DNA of 64,000 nt from positions 35,809 to 99,808 of the forward strand of contig JAGOQU010000001.1 in assembly GCA_018063165.1 (NCBI GenBank), read 5' to 3'. This document shows positions 33,337-39,097 of this stretch, one piece after another; the first letter of the stretch is position 1, and every line of letters starts with the position of its first letter. This DNA comes from Minisyncoccota bacterium. Lineage in GTDB: Bacteria; Patescibacteriota; Minisyncoccia; Phycocordibacterales; UBA5272. The notes beneath the pieces were generated by a model. It was not told the DNA's origin and did no database searches. It saw only the letters and a program-made list of their open reading frames with translations. Both the position numbers and the translations under genes were made by a program.

Positions 33337-33380
33337 GTAATCATTTCTCGTTTATTCATAGAAAAGCATATAATCATTTT

Positions 33381-33938
33381 GTGATTATATGCTTTTCTTA
33401 TATACTTATCATTATCATGGAGCCAGAAAAAATAAGCACGTCAACAAGTGAAATAAATAAGCCTATTCAAGAAACCGAACCTGTATATCACACAATTTCT
33501 GGCGGAACAGAAACGTTAGCAGAAAAACAGCGCAGCAAGAGTATTGTTACCAGTGAACAGTTACATGTTCCTGTTGCAGTTACTGATACTGTTTTAGATA
33601 AGGAGGTTGTTACTGTAAATACTAACTTGAGATCGGAAAATATAATTATCAGATACGTATATGCAATTTTTGTTTCTTTTATTTTATTTTTTATTTTGTT
33701 AAGTTTTTTAAAAAATAATACTTATTTAAATCAAAATTTTTTTACATATATTCTCTGGTTATACTACTCACTTGCGTTTTTTCTGTTTGTTTTTTCTGTA
33801 AAATCTATTTTACAGAAAAAAAGTTATTACATGCTCGGTCAGTTTTTTTTATTTCTTATTTCACCAGTTCTTATTGGTTTTGGTTTGTGTATGACTTTTA
33901 TGTATGGAATTTCAATTTTTTCTGCATTTAAGAATTAA
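33381..33938 (+). CDS. hypothetical membrane protein
   Basis: C-terminal half contains three TM helices. Confidence 0.4.
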   Translation: MIICFSYILIIIMEPEKISTSTSEINKPIQETEPVYHTISGGTETLAEKQRSKSIVTSEQLHVPVAVTDTVLDKEVVTVNTNLRSENIIIRYVYAIFVSFILFFILLSFLKNNTYLNQNFFTYILWLYYSLAFFLFVFSVKSILQKKSYYMLGQFFLFLISPVLIGFGLCMTFMYGISIFSAFKN

Positions 33939-33946
33939 GTTATCGT

Positions 33947-34654
33947 ATGTATATTCATCTAGTAACTGATTATCTGTCCATTTTTATCGGGATGCAGTTT
34001 TATTTTTTATTGAATAAAAAATCAGGCATTAATCCTGAAAAAAAGATTTGGTATATAGTAGGTGCATTACTTGGAGCACTTATTGGTTCGAGATTGCTTG
34101 CTGCACTTGAAGATCCATATATGTTTTTGCATGCAGATACCTGGCTTTATTATTATGTTAATAAAACAATTATAGGTGGCATAGCTGGTGGTATTCTTGG
34201 TATAGAAATTGCAAAGAAGTTTCTTGGAATAAAAAGTAATACAGGAGATCAGGTAGTTATACCTCTTATGGTTGCAATTATTATTGGTCGTATCGGATGT
34301 CAGCTTACAGGAGTGTCAGATGGTACTATAGGTGTTGTTTGTGATTATCTATGGTGTTTTAAGCAAGGTGACGAATTTAATAGGCATCCAATACCATTAT
34401 ATGAAATAATTGAAATTTTGATACTTTTACCTATATTTTATAGATGGATACAGCAAAAGAAATTTCAAGAAGGTTTTGTTTTTAGACTTTTTATTATTAT
34501 ATATTTTGGTATGCGTTTTTTGTTTGAATATATAAAAGATACGAATTCAATTTTTGTATCATTTTCTGCAATTCAAATAGTTTGTCTTTTATTTGTGTTT
34601 TATTATATCTTTGATAGTATTAAACACGGATTGTACAAAACGAATATATCTTGA
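33947..34654 (+). CDS. lgt: prolipoprotein diacylglyceryl transferase
   Basis: Block-wise match to Lgt: GALLGALIGSRL; GGIAGGILG; DQVVIPLMVAIIIGRIGCQLTG (Lgt signature region G-R-x-G-x-F-x-N-G); HPIPLYEIIE (HP..LYE); FRLFIIIYFGMRFLFEYIKD. Confidence 0.7.
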   Translation: MYIHLVTDYLSIFIGMQFYFLLNKKSGINPEKKIWYIVGALLGALIGSRLLAALEDPYMFLHADTWLYYYVNKTIIGGIAGGILGIEIAKKFLGIKSNTGDQVVIPLMVAIIIGRIGCQLTGVSDGTIGVVCDYLWCFKQGDEFNRHPIPLYEIIEILILLPIFYRWIQQKKFQEGFVFRLFIIIYFGMRFLFEYIKDTNSIFVSFSAIQIVCLLFVFYYIFDSIKHGLYKTNIS

Positions 34655-34665
34655 AAGGGTATACT

Positions 34666-36042
34666 ATGAAATCAAATTATGAAAAAGAAGTTGTTATAAG
34701 CACAGATTCTTGTTGTGATAATTCGTATACACTTGATCATTTTTGCGGTAACGGAAAAAGGTTGAGCGATACAAAATCTCGTTGTAATGTGTGTGGTGTT
34801 GAATGTCGTGCTGAAATATTTCGTTCTAACGATACTCCTCCACGTATATATATGGTAAAACATTGCGCGGAGCATGGTAGAACTAGTTCTCGTATATCAA
34901 GTGATGCACAGTTTTATTATTCAATGAAAGATGGAGAGGTGTGTGCTTGTGGTACTCAAGGGTGCTCTCCTGTCTTGCTTGGTGATAATGCAAAAACTGC
35001 TTCACAATTGCATACATGTACTCTTGTTGTGGAAATTGTATATGATTGTAATCTTTCATGTCCAACATGTTATGCTAATAGTCCAAAAATGTATAATGCA
35101 AAATCATTATCTTTTTTAAGTTTTGAAGATTTTAAAAAATCAATTCTTGATTTGTATGCAAAACAGGGACGCTTAGATATTATCCAGCTTTCAGGTGGAG
35201 AGCCGACACTTCACCCTCAATTATTTGAAATGATAGAATGGTTATCTAAACAGGAATGGATTGCAGATATATTACTTAATACTAATGGTATCAAGCTTGC
35301 TGATCAACTGTTTATGCATAAAATATTAGAAGTTGTACCTCTTGGTCGTTTCGGAGTATATTTACAATTCGATGGTAATACTCCTTTTGGTCAGGTTACA
35401 CTTCGTGGCAATGATATGAGGTCAGTGCGTGAACGTGCAATAAAAAATTGTTCATCATACAATATTCCTGTATCACTTGTGATGACTGTAACGCATGATA
35501 ATAAATTTGATTGTAGTACTGCTATTACAAAAGCACTTTCTGATGATTATATACGTTGGATAGTTTTTCAACCAGAATTTATTTCTGGCAGGAATGGTAA
35601 AGATAAAATTTTTGAAACACCCATAAATGTTGCAGACGTTATTCATAGTGTTGCCACTGGTAGTATTATGGATATTCATTCTTGGATGCCATTACCTTGT
35701 AGTGATCCTAATTGTGGTACCGTAGGTTTTCTTGTAAGGAAAGATGGTGTATGGATACCAGTTTCAAAATTTGTAGATATGAATCAATTTTCTCCATTTA
35801 TTTTAAATAGAATGAATTTTGATATTGATGATTCTCTTGCGTCATGTGGTTGTGATAATGTAAGTCTTGAAGAAGAACTTGCAAGATATAACATTGAAAA
35901 AAAAGATATAAAAATGGTTTTCATTAAACCTTTTATGGATATAAGGACATGGGACACAAAACGTATCGAGTCGTGCTGTACGCATGTACTGACACCAGAA
36001 GGTAAACTTGATAGTTTTTGTAGGTATTATGGAACAAGGTAA
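34666..36042 (+). CDS. radical SAM enzyme with a Cys-rich N-terminal zinc-ribbon-like region and a C-terminal Cys cluster
   Basis: CNLSCPTCY (CxxxCxxC), IIQLSGGEPTLHP, LLNTNG. N-terminus CCDNS...CGNG...CNVCGVEC...C..HG. C-terminus CSDPNC...SCGC...SCCTH...SFC. Start at ATG 34666; the track start is a TTG overlapping the lgt stop. Confidence 0.75.
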   Translation: MKSNYEKEVVISTDSCCDNSYTLDHFCGNGKRLSDTKSRCNVCGVECRAEIFRSNDTPPRIYMVKHCAEHGRTSSRISSDAQFYYSMKDGEVCACGTQGCSPVLLGDNAKTASQLHTCTLVVEIVYDCNLSCPTCYANSPKMYNAKSLSFLSFEDFKKSILDLYAKQGRLDIIQLSGGEPTLHPQLFEMIEWLSKQEWIADILLNTNGIKLADQLFMHKILEVVPLGRFGVYLQFDGNTPFGQVTLRGNDMRSVRERAIKNCSSYNIPVSLVMTVTHDNKFDCSTAITKALSDDYIRWIVFQPEFISGRNGKDKIFETPINVADVIHSVATGSIMDIHSWMPLPCSDPNCGTVGFLVRKDGVWIPVSKFVDMNQFSPFILNRMNFDIDDSLASCGCDNVSLEEELARYNIEKKDIKMVFIKPFMDIRTWDTKRIESCCTHVLTPEGKLDSFCRYYGTR

Positions 36043-36059: not shown

Positions 36060-36088
36060 AAAACCCGCGACTATGTCGCGGGTTTTAT
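36060..36088. terminator. bidirectional intrinsic terminator
   Basis: ACCCGCGAC-TAT-GTCGCGGGT flanked by A/T runs. Lies between convergent genes. Confidence 0.5.
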
Positions 36089-36101
36089 AAATATATTAAA
36101 A

Positions 36102-36410
36102 TTAATTTATTATAAATAAGGTTAATAATAGTCCTGTTAAGAAAATAGATAGTATTAACAAAAAAAATCCAATGATAACGGTAAAAATTTTTACACGTAA
36201 AGGGTAAAAATCTTCTAATTCTGGTTTTTTTCTGAATACTGCAATCATACTGCTTAAGGAATATAAAGCAGACACTAAAAATGTTGCTATCGGTATAATC
36301 ATTAATGGTTTTGCTAATCCCATAAACATACAACTTCCAAAACCAACAAGTTGTAATATGATAGCGCGGATAATGTGTTCTTGTTTCATTTTAGTAAAAA
36401 TATTTTGCAT
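36102..36410 (-). CDS. hypothetical small membrane protein (three TM helices)
   Basis: Hydrophobicity pattern only. Confidence 0.4.
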   Translation of the reverse strand: MQNIFTKMKQEHIIRAIILQLVGFGSCMFMGLAKPLMIIPIATFLVSALYSLSSMIAVFRKKPELEDFYPLRVKIFTVIIGFFLLILSIFLTGLLLTLFIIN

Positions 36411-36550: not shown

Positions 36551-36736
36551 ATGAAAGGGGAAATCATGGAAATGATTATGAATCTTTTAATACTTTCATC
36601 TGTTATAAATATTTTTTTATTTATTTCAGTATTTGTATCTTCAGGTGAAACTAGAAAAACTGTCTTAAAATATTTTAGTATAAATTTTTTATTTGGAGTT
36701 TTTCTGGTCTACCTTGTTGTAAAAAATAATCATTAA
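36551..36736 (+). CDS. possible small hydrophobic peptide (61 aa)
   Basis: ORF with two hydrophobic segments; weak support. Confidence 0.2.
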   Translation: MKGEIMEMIMNLLILSSVINIFLFISVFVSSGETRKTVLKYFSINFLFGVFLVYLVVKNNH

Positions 36737-37319: not shown

Positions 37320-38090
37320 TTAGATCAATATTAGTATAAGAATAATTCCTACTATAATTCTATACCAGCCAAAAACAGCAAAAGAGTTTGATCGTATATA
37401 TTTTAGAAAATACGTGATAACAAGAAGTGCAACCATAAAAGAAACAACTGTTCCAAAAAGGATTGGAGTTATATCATTTACTACAAGCTCTGAATGTTTT
37501 TTATAGATAGTGTATAGAGTCGCTATTACCATTGTAGGGACAGCAAGAAGAAATGTAAATTCAGTAAGTAATTTTCTTTCTAATTTCATGGTAAGTCCTC
37601 CTATGATCATAGCGCCTGAACGCGACACTCCAGGTATAATAGCAATAGCCTGATATATACCAAGAAGAAAAGCTTCTTTGTAACTTATTTTTTTTTCTTT
37701 TTTAATGTCATCTGATACTATTTTTTGTGTATACCATTTTTCTACAACAAGAATACATACACCCCCTAATGTCATAGTTAATGCGACTAAAAGAGGACTT
37801 GTAAGAAATAGTTTTATATAAGGAAAAATAAAAAGACCAAGTACACCTGTTGGTATAAAAGCAATAATAAGTTTTTGTATCATTGCAGTTTCAAATAGTT
37901 TTTTGGCATATAGTACAACTACTGCAGAAATAGCTCCAACTTGAGAAACAACTTCAAATGTTTCTAGGGTTACACCTTCTTTTATATGTAAAAAGTGAGA
38001 CACTACTATCATATGTCCAGTAGACGATATTGGTAAAAATTCTGTAAAACCTTCTACAATAGCTAGTATAAATGAGTGTAATATAGTCAT
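37320..38090 (-). CDS. uppP: undecaprenyl-diphosphatase
   Basis: ILAIVEGFTEFLPISSTGHMIV plus the second conserved region (PGVSRSGAMIIGG). Start set at MTILHSF; the track ORF extends further 5'. Confidence 0.8.
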   Translation of the reverse strand: MTILHSFILAIVEGFTEFLPISSTGHMIVVSHFLHIKEGVTLETFEVVSQVGAISAVVVLYAKKLFETAMIQKLIIAFIPTGVLGLFIFPYIKLFLTSPLLVALTMTLGGVCILVVEKWYTQKIVSDDIKKEKKISYKEAFLLGIYQAIAIIPGVSRSGAMIIGGLTMKLERKLLTEFTFLLAVPTMVIATLYTIYKKHSELVVNDITPILFGTVVSFMVALLVITYFLKYIRSNSFAVFGWYRIIVGIILILILI

Positions 38091-38185
38091 ACATATGAGT
38101 GTATCACGACATAGTAAAGTGTATATACATATATAAAAAAGTAGTCCCTTTGTTTTAGATAAAAAGTATTCTACACTAGAGATAT

Positions 38186-39097
38186 ATGTCACGAGTACTT
38201 AGACCTATAAAAGTTTTTCAAGATTCTCCTAAAGAAGAATTAATTTCTACTGATATTATAGAAAACATATCTACTTTTAATACTGTTGATGAAGTAAACA
38301 GTGAAAAAAGTTTTATCCAAGAAGTTTCTACTGTTGTTCCTTCTGAAAAGGATACACCTACTATAGAAAATAGCACACTTTCTCAAGAAGAAGTTGTTTC
38401 AGATAAGAGTGGATCAAACGATGTGATAGGTATCTGCACGCTCTCTGAGGAAGTAAGTTTATTAGAAGAACAAAAAAATGCAGAAATTAAAGATGGAGTT
38501 ATATCAGATGCACTGCAAAAACTTTTAGATAGAAAAATAGAAAAAGCAGAAGCTGAAGCGAAAGCGTCTTTAGAAGAGGTTGATGTACTTGATAATACAA
38601 ACATGGCACAAAATGGCATAGCTCAACAAACTGTTGTAACTAGTAGTAATGAAAGTGCTTCCATCTCTTTAGAAGATTTACCTAAACAAGACAGTGTTCA
38701 GCCAGTAAAAATACCGATTATTTCTTCAGTTGCACCAGGACAAGAAATACATGTCCCAGCTCAACCATTAACACAAGTTATTTCTGAAGTTGAACCTGTT
38801 TCAGTTCAAAAAGAAGATAGTAATACTTCTTTAGATGTACCTGTAGATTTTTATCCTGCTGTTTCCGATGAGTTAAAAAGTGCGCCAGTGATTGCTTTAA
38901 ATCATCAAGCGGAAGTTGTTCCTACAGAAGTCTTGTCACAAGTGGTTCCTGTGGTAACAGAGTCTACACAGATGACCCCAGCAGAACCACTCACTTCTAA
39001 TGTTCCTCAAACTCAGGTTGCTGAAGGTATAAAAGAAGTTCATTGGTTTGATAAACTTTTTGGAAATCCACCAATAAGTCCTCCAAAAGGTATGTAG
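38186..39097 (+). CDS. hypothetical acidic low-complexity protein (Ser/Glu/Val/Pro-rich)
   Basis: ORF only; compositionally biased. Confidence 0.35.
   Translation: MSRVLRPIKVFQDSPKEELISTDIIENISTFNTVDEVNSEKSFIQEVSTVVPSEKDTPTIENSTLSQEEVVSDKSGSNDVIGICTLSEEVSLLEEQKNAEIKDGVISDALQKLLDRKIEKAEAEAKASLEEVDVLDNTNMAQNGIAQQTVVTSSNESASISLEDLPKQDSVQPVKIPIISSVAPGQEIHVPAQPLTQVISEVEPVSVQKEDSNTSLDVPVDFYPAVSDELKSAPVIALNHQAEVVPTEVLSQVVPVVTESTQMTPAEPLTSNVPQTQVAEGIKEVHWFDKLFGNPPISPPKGM

Follow-up and report, generated by a model that had tools for sequence, protein, structure and literature searches.

A Conserved Cassette of an Lgt Paralog, a Tes-Like Radical-SAM Enzyme and Small Cysteine-Motif Membrane Proteins in a Minisyncoccota Bacterium and Distant Phyla

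Introduction

Protein lipidation of the Lgt type and radical lipid chemistry of the Tes type are both known. The lipoprotein diacylglyceryl transferase Lgt of Escherichia coli has an outward-facing active site, in which D129, R143, G154, Y235, R239, and E243 bind or activate phosphatidylglycerol, and H103 is essential (PMC4728403). The radical S-adenosylmethionine (radical-SAM) enzyme GDGT-MAS/Tes (MJ0619 of M. jannaschii; structures 7TOL and 7TOM; NCBIfam model NF045702) binds lipids and couples chain termini (PMC9433317), and bacterial Tes homologs have been proposed, without proof, as makers of glycerol dialkyl glycerol tetraethers of the branched type (brGDGTs) (PMC8941075; PMC9433317; 10.1101/2024.06.25.600576). 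Here, we describe a locus within a stretch of 64,000 nucleotides of contig JAGOQU010000001.1 (assembly GCA_018063165.1; the whole stretch is called the window) from a Minisyncoccota bacterium of the candidate phyla radiation (CPR). In this locus a gene for an Lgt paralog directly precedes a gene for a Tes-like radical-SAM enzyme, and small membrane proteins with a cysteine motif, the putative clients of the two enzymes, are encoded on both sides. These three kinds of component are linked across very distant phyla, and the two enzyme types are therewith combined in one conserved cassette together with clients. Such a linkage is not known for Tes, and literature searches yielded no paper tying Tes-like enzymes to Lgt paralogs or to cysteine-motif proteins.

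Two further groups of systems are related in concept. In MYXO-CTERM/myxosortase sorting, as well as in eukaryotic and archaeal CaaX processing, an invariant Cys lies beside a C-terminal transmembrane (TM) helix and lipidation is proposed, which for MYXO-CTERM might be due to an “Lgt-like” enzyme (PMC11980579). Neither system involves a radical-SAM enzyme. A possible functional analogue is the membrane-spanning lipid synthase Mss of the bacterium Thermotoga. This radical-SAM enzyme works at the termini of acyl chains in bacteria and belongs to a different radical-SAM family that is only remotely related to Tes (PMC13159169). No report was found of an Lgt partner or of cysteine-motif proteins for Mss. 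An original prediction, made from the DNA letters of the window, had drawn attention to the lgt gene adjoining the radical-SAM gene and suggested lipid or lipoprotein modification, a direction to which the genomic context indeed points. The gene upstream of the pair (33417-33938) and the cysteine motif of the small proteins were absent from it, and this conserved motif is the most informative clue.

Organization of the locus

The unit consists of three tightly packed genes on the plus strand, coding for a membrane protein of 173 aa, an Lgt-family protein of 235 aa and a radical-SAM protein of 458 aa, with a hairpin on either side. A fourth gene converges on the unit from the minus strand. The features are as follows.

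33360..33398, plus strand: 18-bp perfect stem-loop 3' of an M3 peptidase gene, terminator-like upstream boundary of the unit, found by folding
33417..33938, plus strand: small membrane protein of 173 aa, putative client of type 1; NCBI calls the same 173-aa hypothetical protein
33870..33890, plus strand: lipobox-like LIGFGLC at the predicted outer end of the last TM helix of the 173-aa protein, found by a six-frame pattern scan
33947..34654, plus strand: Lgt-family paralog of 235 aa with seven TM helices and the signature GRIGC; ATG at 33947, TGA at 34652-34654; PF01790
34653..34659, plus strand: Shine-Dalgarno-like GAAAGGG, overlapping the lgt-like stop codon and located 6 nt 5' of the radical-SAM ATG
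34666..36042, plus strand: Tes/GDGT-MAS-like radical-SAM enzyme of 458 aa; ATG 34666 is the start supported by homologs
36060..36086, no strand assigned: GC-rich hairpin flanked by an A-run and a T-run, lying between the convergent genes for the radical-SAM enzyme and the 102-aa protein, found by folding
36102..36410, minus strand: small membrane protein of 102 aa, putative client of type 2, motif at 36330-36350; converges on the second hairpin

Both open reading frames (ORFs) of the predicted gene pair were confirmed, and the 458-aa protein is 100% identical to NCBI protein P0001 from a metagenome-assembled genome of Candidatus Pacebacteria/Paceibacterota. The lgt-like gene had been described as ending inside the start region of the radical-SAM gene. 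The tight spacing holds true, whereas the overlap does not: the lgt-like stop codon, located within GAAAGGG, is separated from the supported ATG 34666 by 11 nt, and an overlap (TTGA) only arises with the unsupported TTG 34651 as start. In relatives the two genes are also closely spaced or overlap by 4-29 nt, whichever gene comes first. The two small ORFs that had been noted downstream of the pair are to be judged differently, since the gene at 36102-36410 (minus strand) is part of the system, whereas the 61-aa ORF at 36551-36736 (plus strand) contains no Cys, has no homolog in any locus and gives only a weak alignment, and was therefore not counted in.

The upstream hairpin has a folding energy of -21.6 kcal/mol (z = -7.1), and none of 200 shuffled sequences folded equally well. 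The downstream hairpin (-19.4 kcal/mol, z = -6.5) looks like a bidirectional terminator. A terminator scan called neither of the two, which were both confirmed by folding instead, and a scan for consensus promoters was uninformative, with 25 sites found and 24 expected.

Conservation of the cassette

A genome scan with one genome per species yielded 518 genomes with a relative of the radical-SAM enzyme, and gene neighbourhoods were analysed for the best 80 of the 518 loci. The Lgt-like gene adjoins the radical-SAM gene in 71 of these 80 loci, and four of the other nine end at a contig edge. In the reverse direction, a search starting from the Lgt-like protein led to a radical-SAM gene in all four loci examined. 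More distant radical-SAM enzymes (26-28% identity) are encoded on replicons of Chondrinema and Persicobacter (Bacteroidota) and of Nonomuraea (Actinomycetota), and there a GRIGC-type Lgt paralog and the complete triad are found again. The Lgt-like gene lies directly upstream of the radical-SAM gene in CPR bacteria and downstream of it in Verrucomicrobiota, Acidobacteriota (loci L065 and L084), Oligoflexia, and Binatia. Altogether, the synteny spans at least seven phyla in both gene orders, so that the adjacency of the two genes, the conservation of which had been suggested as a check, is by no means unique to this genome.

The flanking genes are unlike between loci and comprise, for example, chemotaxis genes, glycoside hydrolases or, in one CPR contig, ribosomal protein genes. 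Since the surroundings differ from locus to locus, the cassette behaves as a self-contained unit. It is also compact. Neither a protease nor an exporter is conserved in it. The CPR contig just mentioned (L085:6345-9177; 993 kb, JGI 3300056599) carries the entire cassette plus a 406-aa PG_binding_1 protein between rplB (L2) and rpsS (S19), and this position inside a ribosomal-protein operon suggests insertion or mobility of the cassette. A complete cassette including a 104-aa protein ending in LLVGFGACFIGVAGFF is also present on a contig that is labelled Candidatus Pacearchaeota archaeon (DPANN; L088, GCA_016196285.1, JACPXY010000056.1), which is either a mis-binned CPR contig or the result of a transfer into an archaeon.

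Small membrane proteins with a cysteine motif

Nearly all loci encode one to five small membrane proteins on the strand of the gene pair, with a length of 60-170 aa and sometimes longer. Scans of 30 of these proteins against Pfam and NCBIfam gave no match above threshold, and the only sub-threshold matches were to the model “invert_tail”. The sole conserved feature is the end of the proteins, which consists of a Lys/Arg-rich loop, a TM helix and the motif [F/G/A]-[G/A]-(T)-C, beyond which 4-15 residues follow as a tail. The lipobox-like motif typically reads VGFGxC or FAGC, as in LLVGFGFCLLLALDH and LVGFGTCVFNLKLN of CPR bacteria and in VLFAGCALLTGGFH, AFVGCSGTGRIAP, and YFVIGAGVCGSFF of other groups. 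By a strict definition, 85 of 620 ORFs adjacent to the cassette carry the Cys-tail motif, whereas of the 1975 other ORFs of these loci 3 do so (odds ratio 104, p = 7e-51). At least one Cys-tail protein is present in about 75 of the 80 loci once over-extended ORF calls are corrected, and tandem copies are common. These counts are based on motif and coordinates; when raw ORFs were clustered by single linkage, spurious ORFs in alternative frames became merged in high-GC loci.

On average, 2.4 Lys or Arg residues are found in the 12 residues ahead of the client helix compared with 0.4 in the tail, and the median length of the uncharged stretch that leads to the Cys is 23 aa. Because of this charge bias and span, the client Cys should sit at the outer end of the helix, as the lipobox Cys does relative to a signal peptide. 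Most clients have G, A, S, or T at position -1 of the Cys besides the K/R ahead of the helix. One CPR subgroup without a C-terminal Cys bears L(D/N)(L/V)VGFG(S/T/V)C after the first helix instead, and we refer to these proteins as type 2.

The window contains one protein of each type. In the 173-aa protein, about 80 soluble N-terminal residues precede three TM helices and a K-rich loop, and the last helix ends with LIGFGLC followed by a 15-aa tail. It can be aligned with the Cys-tail proteins of other CPR bacteria and belongs to no Pfam or NCBIfam family, and a homology search among 5.8 billion sequences returned the protein itself alone. The 102-aa protein has a basic N-terminus, a short helix ending with LQLVGFGSC (residues 19-27) and two further TM helices, and is homologous to CPR proteins of the loci L004, L005, L006, L009, L011, and L013 with VGFG(S/T/V)C after the first helix. 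By the lipobox rule of a basic n-region, a hydrophobic h-region and [LVI][ASTVI][GAS]C, FGSC of the 102-aa protein (residues 24-27) fits the classical form, whereas position -1 is Leu in the 173-aa protein, where the signal lies near the C-terminal end. Across the six frames of the window, there are just two matches to the pattern [LIVF][LIVA]G[FYWAGLV]G[TSLFAVI]C, and both flank the lgt-like/radical-SAM pair.

The N-terminal parts of the clients vary and include zinc ribbons, a domain of about 40 residues that contains GW, and Pro-rich regions. A zinc ribbon of predicted cytoplasmic location is found at the N-terminus of the 87-aa client of L084. Judged from their sequences, the client proteins evolve fast. 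The 40-aa module, ELxxYIxxxLxxGxxxExIxxxLxxxGWxxxxIxxA, precedes the TM helices in several CPR clients and belongs to no family. It was seen in the following proteins.

L006:4664-5188: CPR client with GW module
L011:7455-7973: CPR client with GW module
L011:7986-8891: CPR client with GW module
L085:6345-6677: CPR client with GW module
L087:1113-1592: CPR client with GW module
L089:5744-6226: CPR client with GW module

The model “invert_tail” (NCBIfam NF058595; 113 profile positions, release 20, a 2026 model) is described as “lipo-invert putative C-terminal anchoring domain”. It matches three Verrucomicrobial clients (L022:7369-7698, L025:7348-8190, and L028:7796-8215) with 10.8-16 bits, which is under the cut-off of 37 bits, and it does not match the 173-aa protein, the only client of the window that was scanned. 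Name and length of the profile suggest the same idea of a C-terminal anchor made of several TM helices that bears a lipoprotein-type signal in inverted form, and a curator may thus already have recognised an idea related to the Cys-tail system. Literature searches found no publication using the term “lipo-invert”. In comparison with MYXO-CTERM, which has the order Cys, helix and Arg-rich tail with the C-terminus inside, the clients show the order basic loop, helix, Cys and short tail with the C-terminus outside.

The Lgt-like protein

The Lgt-like protein passes the Pfam family LGT (PF01790) with 71.4 bits (gathering threshold 24.9), but fails the equivalog cut-offs for lgt (TIGR00544, 25.5 versus 118.9 bits; NF000778, 34.6 versus 334 bits), and its relatives in other phyla are likewise under these cut-offs. 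An AF2 model of the protein (pLDDT 90.6) has E. coli Lgt (5AZB) as its sole significant match in the PDB (E = 6.9e-6, TMq 0.62). Both proteins share the 7-TM fold, PF01790, the predicted topology and the six residues of the phosphatidylglycerol site: when 60 family members were aligned to E. coli Lgt (E. coli numbering), D129, R143, G154, Y235, R239, and E243 were kept in 58-60 of the 60 sequences. The differences concern Asn146, which is Cys in all 60 sequences, Glu151, which is Cys or Val, His103, the position of which is occupied by L, I, or T, and the periplasmic head domain, which is shortened to about 20 residues with extra Cys. Thus, the family does not match the complete Lgt signature GRLGNFINGELWG, which includes N146 and E151, nor H103 of the HGGL motif. 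The GR(I/L)GC signature recurs in the copies of Bacteroidota and Nonomuraea, and three to four conserved Cys face outward in the predicted topology. In the loops, Lys and Arg follow the positive-inside pattern that E. coli Lgt shows, and an outward-facing active site is therefore expected here, too.

The protein had been taken for a lipoprotein diacylglyceryl transferase. Family and fold agree with this, whereas the equivalog cut-offs and the residues at N146, E151, and H103 do not. By sequence, it is a distinct paralog in which the phosphatidylglycerol-binding Arg pair is retained. When E. coli Lgt and LspA were used as tblastn queries, no canonical copy turned up within the 64-kb window, a result that is uninformative for the rest of the genome, and the search with E. 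coli Lgt did not detect the Lgt-like gene of the window.

The radical-SAM enzyme

The 458-aa protein contains the motifs CNLSCPTCY, LSGGEPTLHP, and NTNG, as had been stated before, and a total of 23 Cys, of which 11 precede the radical-SAM motif and 7 belong to the C-terminal domain; the previous counts of about nine and eight, respectively, are to be corrected accordingly. It matches the “HMPTM” N-terminal zinc ribbon (PF23545) and the radical-SAM core in Pfam, and the rubredoxin-like site C40-x2-C43...C67-x2-H70 agrees with the zinc-ribbon/rubredoxin-like N-terminal region that had been proposed. Among 58 homologs, C40, C43, C67, C128, C132, C135, and all seven Cys of the C-terminal domain are invariant, and position 70 is His in 43 and Cys in 13 sequences. 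A further N-terminal [4Fe-4S] cluster is plausible from the positions of C93 (55/58), C95 (48/58), C100, and the invariant C118, in a region that aligns poorly and in which the confidence of the model is low (residues 95-120). The N-terminal extension of CPR enzymes (34666-34806 in the window, residues 1-47) adds C16, C17, and C27, which are present in 27-30 of the 58 sequences and could form one more metal site together with C47.

The closest NCBIfam model is TrsS (NF045646) with 169 bits (cut-off 490; profile positions 2-432 of 441), followed by Tes (NF045702) with 152 bits (cut-off 450; profile positions 2-312 of 486). Throughout the family, scores are 105-177 for Tes and do not exceed 341 bits for TrsS in the Lgt-linked members, so that every tested member is under the cut-offs and membership in TrsS or Tes was rejected. 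As the scores are far under both cut-offs, the enzyme is regarded as a member of the Tes/TrsS superfamily that belongs to neither named family, and this applies equally to every relative tested in Verrucomicrobiota, Acidobacteriota, Oligoflexia, Bacteroidota, and Actinomycetota. With TrsS, which is described as a radical SAM (seleno)protein, it shares an end-to-end profile match and the type of C-terminal domain, but it has no selenocysteine codon.

In sequence comparisons, GDGT-MAS (7TOL, E = 1.5e-33) is the only relative with a solved structure. The AF2 model (pLDDT 84.9, pTM 0.89) likewise matches 7TOL/7TOM best in Foldseek (E = 6e-28, TM 0.72, 26% identity), the next match being SkfB (2e-11), so that of the classes that had been considered for the enzyme the Tes-like lipid synthase fits. 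The fold is alike over nearly the full length. Both enzymes share the rubredoxin-like site CX2C...CX2H, the CX3CX2C core, and the C-terminal motif FMD...CCxH...FC, the CC...C ligands of which correspond to C437, C438, and C452; the N-terminal Cys cluster region is plausibly shared. In contrast to GDGT-MAS, the segment between the core and CC is about 50 residues shorter and contains four extra invariant Cys (C345, C350, C394, and C396). Moreover, the labile Met439 of GDGT-MAS and its neighbouring Cys align with an invariant Ile-Lys421 of the family. The window enzyme is bacterial and, unlike Tes, linked to an Lgt paralog and cysteine-motif proteins.

Other classes were considered and rejected. 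The C-terminal Cys layout (C345-x4-C350 ... C394-x-C396 ... C437-C438 ... C452) differs from the SPASM pattern CX9-15GX4C ... CX2CX5CX3C ... C and from the twitch half-motif, and the matches to SPASM, twitch, and MoaA models are all confined to the core (residues ~120-300). Hence, the SPASM/twitch option raised for the C-terminal region does not apply. Pfam and NCBIfam scans revealed neither a RiPP recognition element (RiPP, ribosomally synthesized and post-translationally modified peptide) nor a SPASM domain, and also no cobalamin-binding domain, which leaves an N-terminal cobalamin domain without match and excludes the B12-binding class for which a profile check had been advised. Some homologs are named pterin dimethyltransferase by JGI, a name that was rejected because the pterin assignment of MJ0619 was irreproducible and the enzyme is a lipid synthase (PMC9433317). 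By its relationships, with GDGT-MAS/Tes as the only close structural relative, the enzyme belongs to no housekeeping family. It is cytoplasmic.

A plasmid of Mycolicibacterium vanbaalenii (L091:2353-7393, NZ_CP126902.1) encodes a Tes/TrsS-like radical-SAM enzyme with 335 bits to TrsS, about as distant as the enzymes of Chondrinema, Persicobacter, and Nonomuraea, that is paired with a methyltransferase of the DVU_1556 family, which is arsenite-methyltransferase-like. Its neighbours are CcdA, a thiol-disulfide oxidoreductase, and a second radical-SAM enzyme, and there is no Lgt-like gene. This locus represents a different use of the same enzyme superfamily.

Accessory genes and genomic surroundings

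Several related loci contain additional membrane proteins. A gene of the fatty-acid-hydroxylase superfamily (PF04116, a membrane protein with His-box) lies among the client genes in five CPR loci, which are the closest relatives of the window, and DUF2238 is found in two CPR loci. Three Verrucomicrobial loci have, just downstream of the Lgt-like gene, a fusion protein with eight TM helices that joins a methyltransferase of the ICMT/PEMT family to DUF4395 and has a Cys-rich tail containing GGCCALTR. The ICMT-family gene recalls CaaX processing, of which the CPBP protease is not conserved in the cassette. A membrane protein of about 135 aa with three to four TM helices, ending in AYL(A/I/V)LYPR and without Pfam family, occurs in ten non-CPR loci. 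Among them, hydroxylase and methyltransferase are membrane enzymes of the lipid type. The accessory genes are not universal, and none of the four kinds (FA_hydroxylase, DUF2238, ICMT-like, and “YPR”) is present in the window.

L002:5265-6017: FA_hydroxylase
L003:3390-4157: FA_hydroxylase
L004:6390-7145: FA_hydroxylase, frameshifted
L008:8380-9138: FA_hydroxylase
L012:7493-8248: FA_hydroxylase
L022:10022-11167: ICMT/PEMT-DUF4395 fusion
L024:10048-11115: ICMT/PEMT-DUF4395 fusion
L070:7724-8848: ICMT/PEMT-DUF4395 fusion
L084:7525-7935: LYPR-family protein
L022:4559-4996: LYPR-family protein
L047:496-924: LYPR-family protein

In one locus only, on the chromosome of Oceaniferula spumae NT6N (L052:4987-5946), a phosphatidylserine decarboxylase gene is located directly upstream of the radical-SAM gene. 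In the window, the region 37320-39097 (minus strand), 1.3 kb downstream of the cassette, encodes the undecaprenyl-diphosphatase BacA/UppP (PF02673, 234 bits). The longest ORF of BacA has a 7-nt overlap with the start of a divergent gene for a low-complexity protein of 303 aa rich in Ser, Glu, and Val, and the true start of BacA is probably further in, because the Pfam domain only begins at residue 41. Over the whole window (1-64000) all 32 segments of two kb show a positive GC skew, and the plus strand carries nearly all long ORFs, in agreement with a single leading-strand replichore arm. Apart from five tRNA genes, no Rfam family was found.

Discussion

We favour the reading that the lgt-like/radical-SAM pair is the core of a dedicated membrane cassette for protein lipidation and lipid tailoring that has its own clients, which we consider a good possibility that falls just short of being probable. 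From the architecture, the conserved residues, the three-way linkage, and the topology given by the charge bias, we infer lipidation of the client Cys, the kind of lipid, and the chemistry of the radical-SAM enzyme as follows. By analogy to Lgt and N-terminal lipoboxes, the Lgt paralog would move a glycerolipid from a phospholipid onto the thiol of the client Cys. Through radical C-H activation, the Tes-like enzyme would tailor this lipid in its alkyl chains, for example by an end-to-end C-C coupling that would lead to a macrocyclic or membrane-spanning anchor. The enzyme might act either on the donor lipid at the cytoplasmic side before the transfer, or on the anchor afterwards. As outcome, a special lipid, attached where the last helix has its far end, would “lock” a dedicated set of membrane proteins. 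That a separate Lgt paralog with an altered cavity, with Cys146 and without His103, is used for this might reflect an unusual donor lipid or an unusual position of the acceptor. The more specific version of this proposal, an undescribed post-translational lipidation in which the Lgt paralog and the Tes-type enzyme install a radical-tailored lipid (e.g., macrocyclic, membrane-spanning, or joined through a new C-C or C-S bond) on the outer-end Cys of “inverted lipobox” proteins, is put forward tentatively, and in this full form it is somewhat unlikely to be correct.

Several observations weigh against lipidation and tailoring by this cassette. The main difficulty is a spatial one: since the radical-SAM enzyme is cytoplasmic and both the Lgt active site and the client Cys are predicted outside, order and site of action are guesses, and at these opposite membrane faces a simultaneous action of both enzymes on one atom is impossible. 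Besides the loss of His103 and the replacement of Asn146, Glu151 is replaced by Cys in 45 and by Val in 14 of the 60 Lgt-like sequences, and for these reasons the transferase chemistry may differ from that of Lgt. In the same way, substrate and chemistry of the radical-SAM enzyme may differ from Tes because of the Lys in place of Met439, the shorter C-terminal domain, and the four extra Cys. The residue at -1 is Leu in the 173-aa client of the window and Thr in many CPR clients, whereas the classical lipobox has G, A, or S. Finally, five well-flanked loci have the radical-SAM gene, but no Lgt-like gene within 6 kb.

The alternative that survives best, although we regard it as unlikely, is a pathway for bulk lipids. 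Here, the radical-SAM enzyme would be a synthase of membrane-spanning lipids, brGDGT-like or diabolic-acid-like, working on ordinary phospholipids, with the Lgt paralog as a lipid-handling partner, e.g., for removal or exchange of head groups, and the small proteins as scaffolds or regulators. The Tes-like fold and cluster set of the enzyme, the phosphate-binding Arg pair that is kept in the Lgt paralog, the presence of the family in Acidobacteriota, and neighbours such as the FA_hydroxylase, the PEMT-like methyltransferase, and the phosphatidylserine decarboxylase of Oceaniferula speak for it, as does the hypothesis that bacterial Tes homologs make brGDGTs (PMC8941075; 10.1101/2024.06.25.600576). 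Such a pathway leaves the near-universal, often tandem and fast-evolving cysteine-motif proteins unexplained, and the family scores far under the Tes cut-off. CPR bacteria, moreover, are generally thought not to build their own lipids. Furthermore, Tes homologs were absent from the producers of diabolic and iso-diabolic acid that were first screened and were found in 3 of 14 Acidobacteria producing iso-diabolic acid (Sahonero-Canavesi et al., PMC13159169).

It is quite unlikely that the small proteins are precursors of a RiPP-like lipopeptide, which would be S-lipidated and cut before the Cys in the manner of signal peptidase II to give a lipidated peptide of 4-15 residues, while the radical-SAM enzyme modifies the peptide or joins it to a lipid. 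Tandem, hypervariable small genes with a conserved processing motif beside a radical-SAM gene do resemble arrays of RiPP precursors, the motif is located where LspA would cut, and the second-best structural relative of the enzyme, SkfB, is a RiPP maturase. However, the tails are short, hydrophobic and poorly conserved, and they are predicted outside whereas the enzyme is cytoplasmic. The type 2 clients, which have the motif after the first helix and at least two TM helices beyond it, do not fit a C-terminal core peptide. The lack of a conserved protease or exporter in the cassette, and of a RiPP recognition element or SPASM domain in the enzyme, also argues against this pathway.

Still less likely, in our view, the small proteins are no substrates at all but docking, electron-transfer, or regulatory subunits, with G-x-C as a motif for helix packing, metal binding, or disulfide formation. 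The N-terminal zinc ribbon, as in the 87-aa protein of L084, or the GW domain could bind the soluble radical-SAM enzyme, and the three to four outward-facing Cys of the Lgt paralog could pair with the client Cys. But two to five divergent tandem copies are rare for structural subunits, and the arrangement of basic loop, helix, small residue and Cys closely mirrors a lipoprotein signal.

A coincidence, in which a housekeeping lgt gene lies beside an unrelated cofactor- or RNA-modifying radical-SAM gene, could appeal to database names (“7,8-dihydro-6-hydroxymethylpterin dimethyltransferase” at JGI) and to the PF01790 score above threshold, but it is the only alternative that is clearly excluded, contradicted by the synteny across at least seven phyla in both gene orders and at odds with the scores of all Lgt-like members under the lgt equivalog cut-offs, with PGAP naming the Chondrinema protein merely “family protein”, and with the proof that MJ0619, whose pterin methylase assignment was irreproducible, is a lipid synthase (PMC9433317).

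Returning to the cassette as a system for lipidation and tailoring, its retention has several implications. Since CPR bacteria with their minimal genomes retain a membrane system of three to four genes, an important function in the envelope is implied. The cassette is also carried by cultured organisms, i.e., Oceaniferula spumae, Haloferula luteola, Persicobacter psychrovividus, Chondrinema litorale, and Nonomuraea gerenzanensis, which makes experiments feasible. To our knowledge, lipidation by Lgt is thought to be restricted to N-terminal signal peptides. If true, an Lgt paralog that recognises signals at the C-terminal end of its own clients would extend this paradigm, and the cassette bears on the “Lgt-like” enzyme that has been postulated for C-terminal Cys sorting signals (PMC11980579). 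Bacterial Tes homologs are widely used as genomic markers for producers of brGDGTs, the lipids behind terrestrial palaeothermometers. A large, multi-phylum subset of them is tied to an Lgt paralog and to cysteine-motif proteins, which offers an alternative function and calls for caution in counting brGDGT synthases. If the proposed lipidation is true, many of the bacterial Tes homologs that are counted as candidate brGDGT synthases would be protein-lipidation enzymes.

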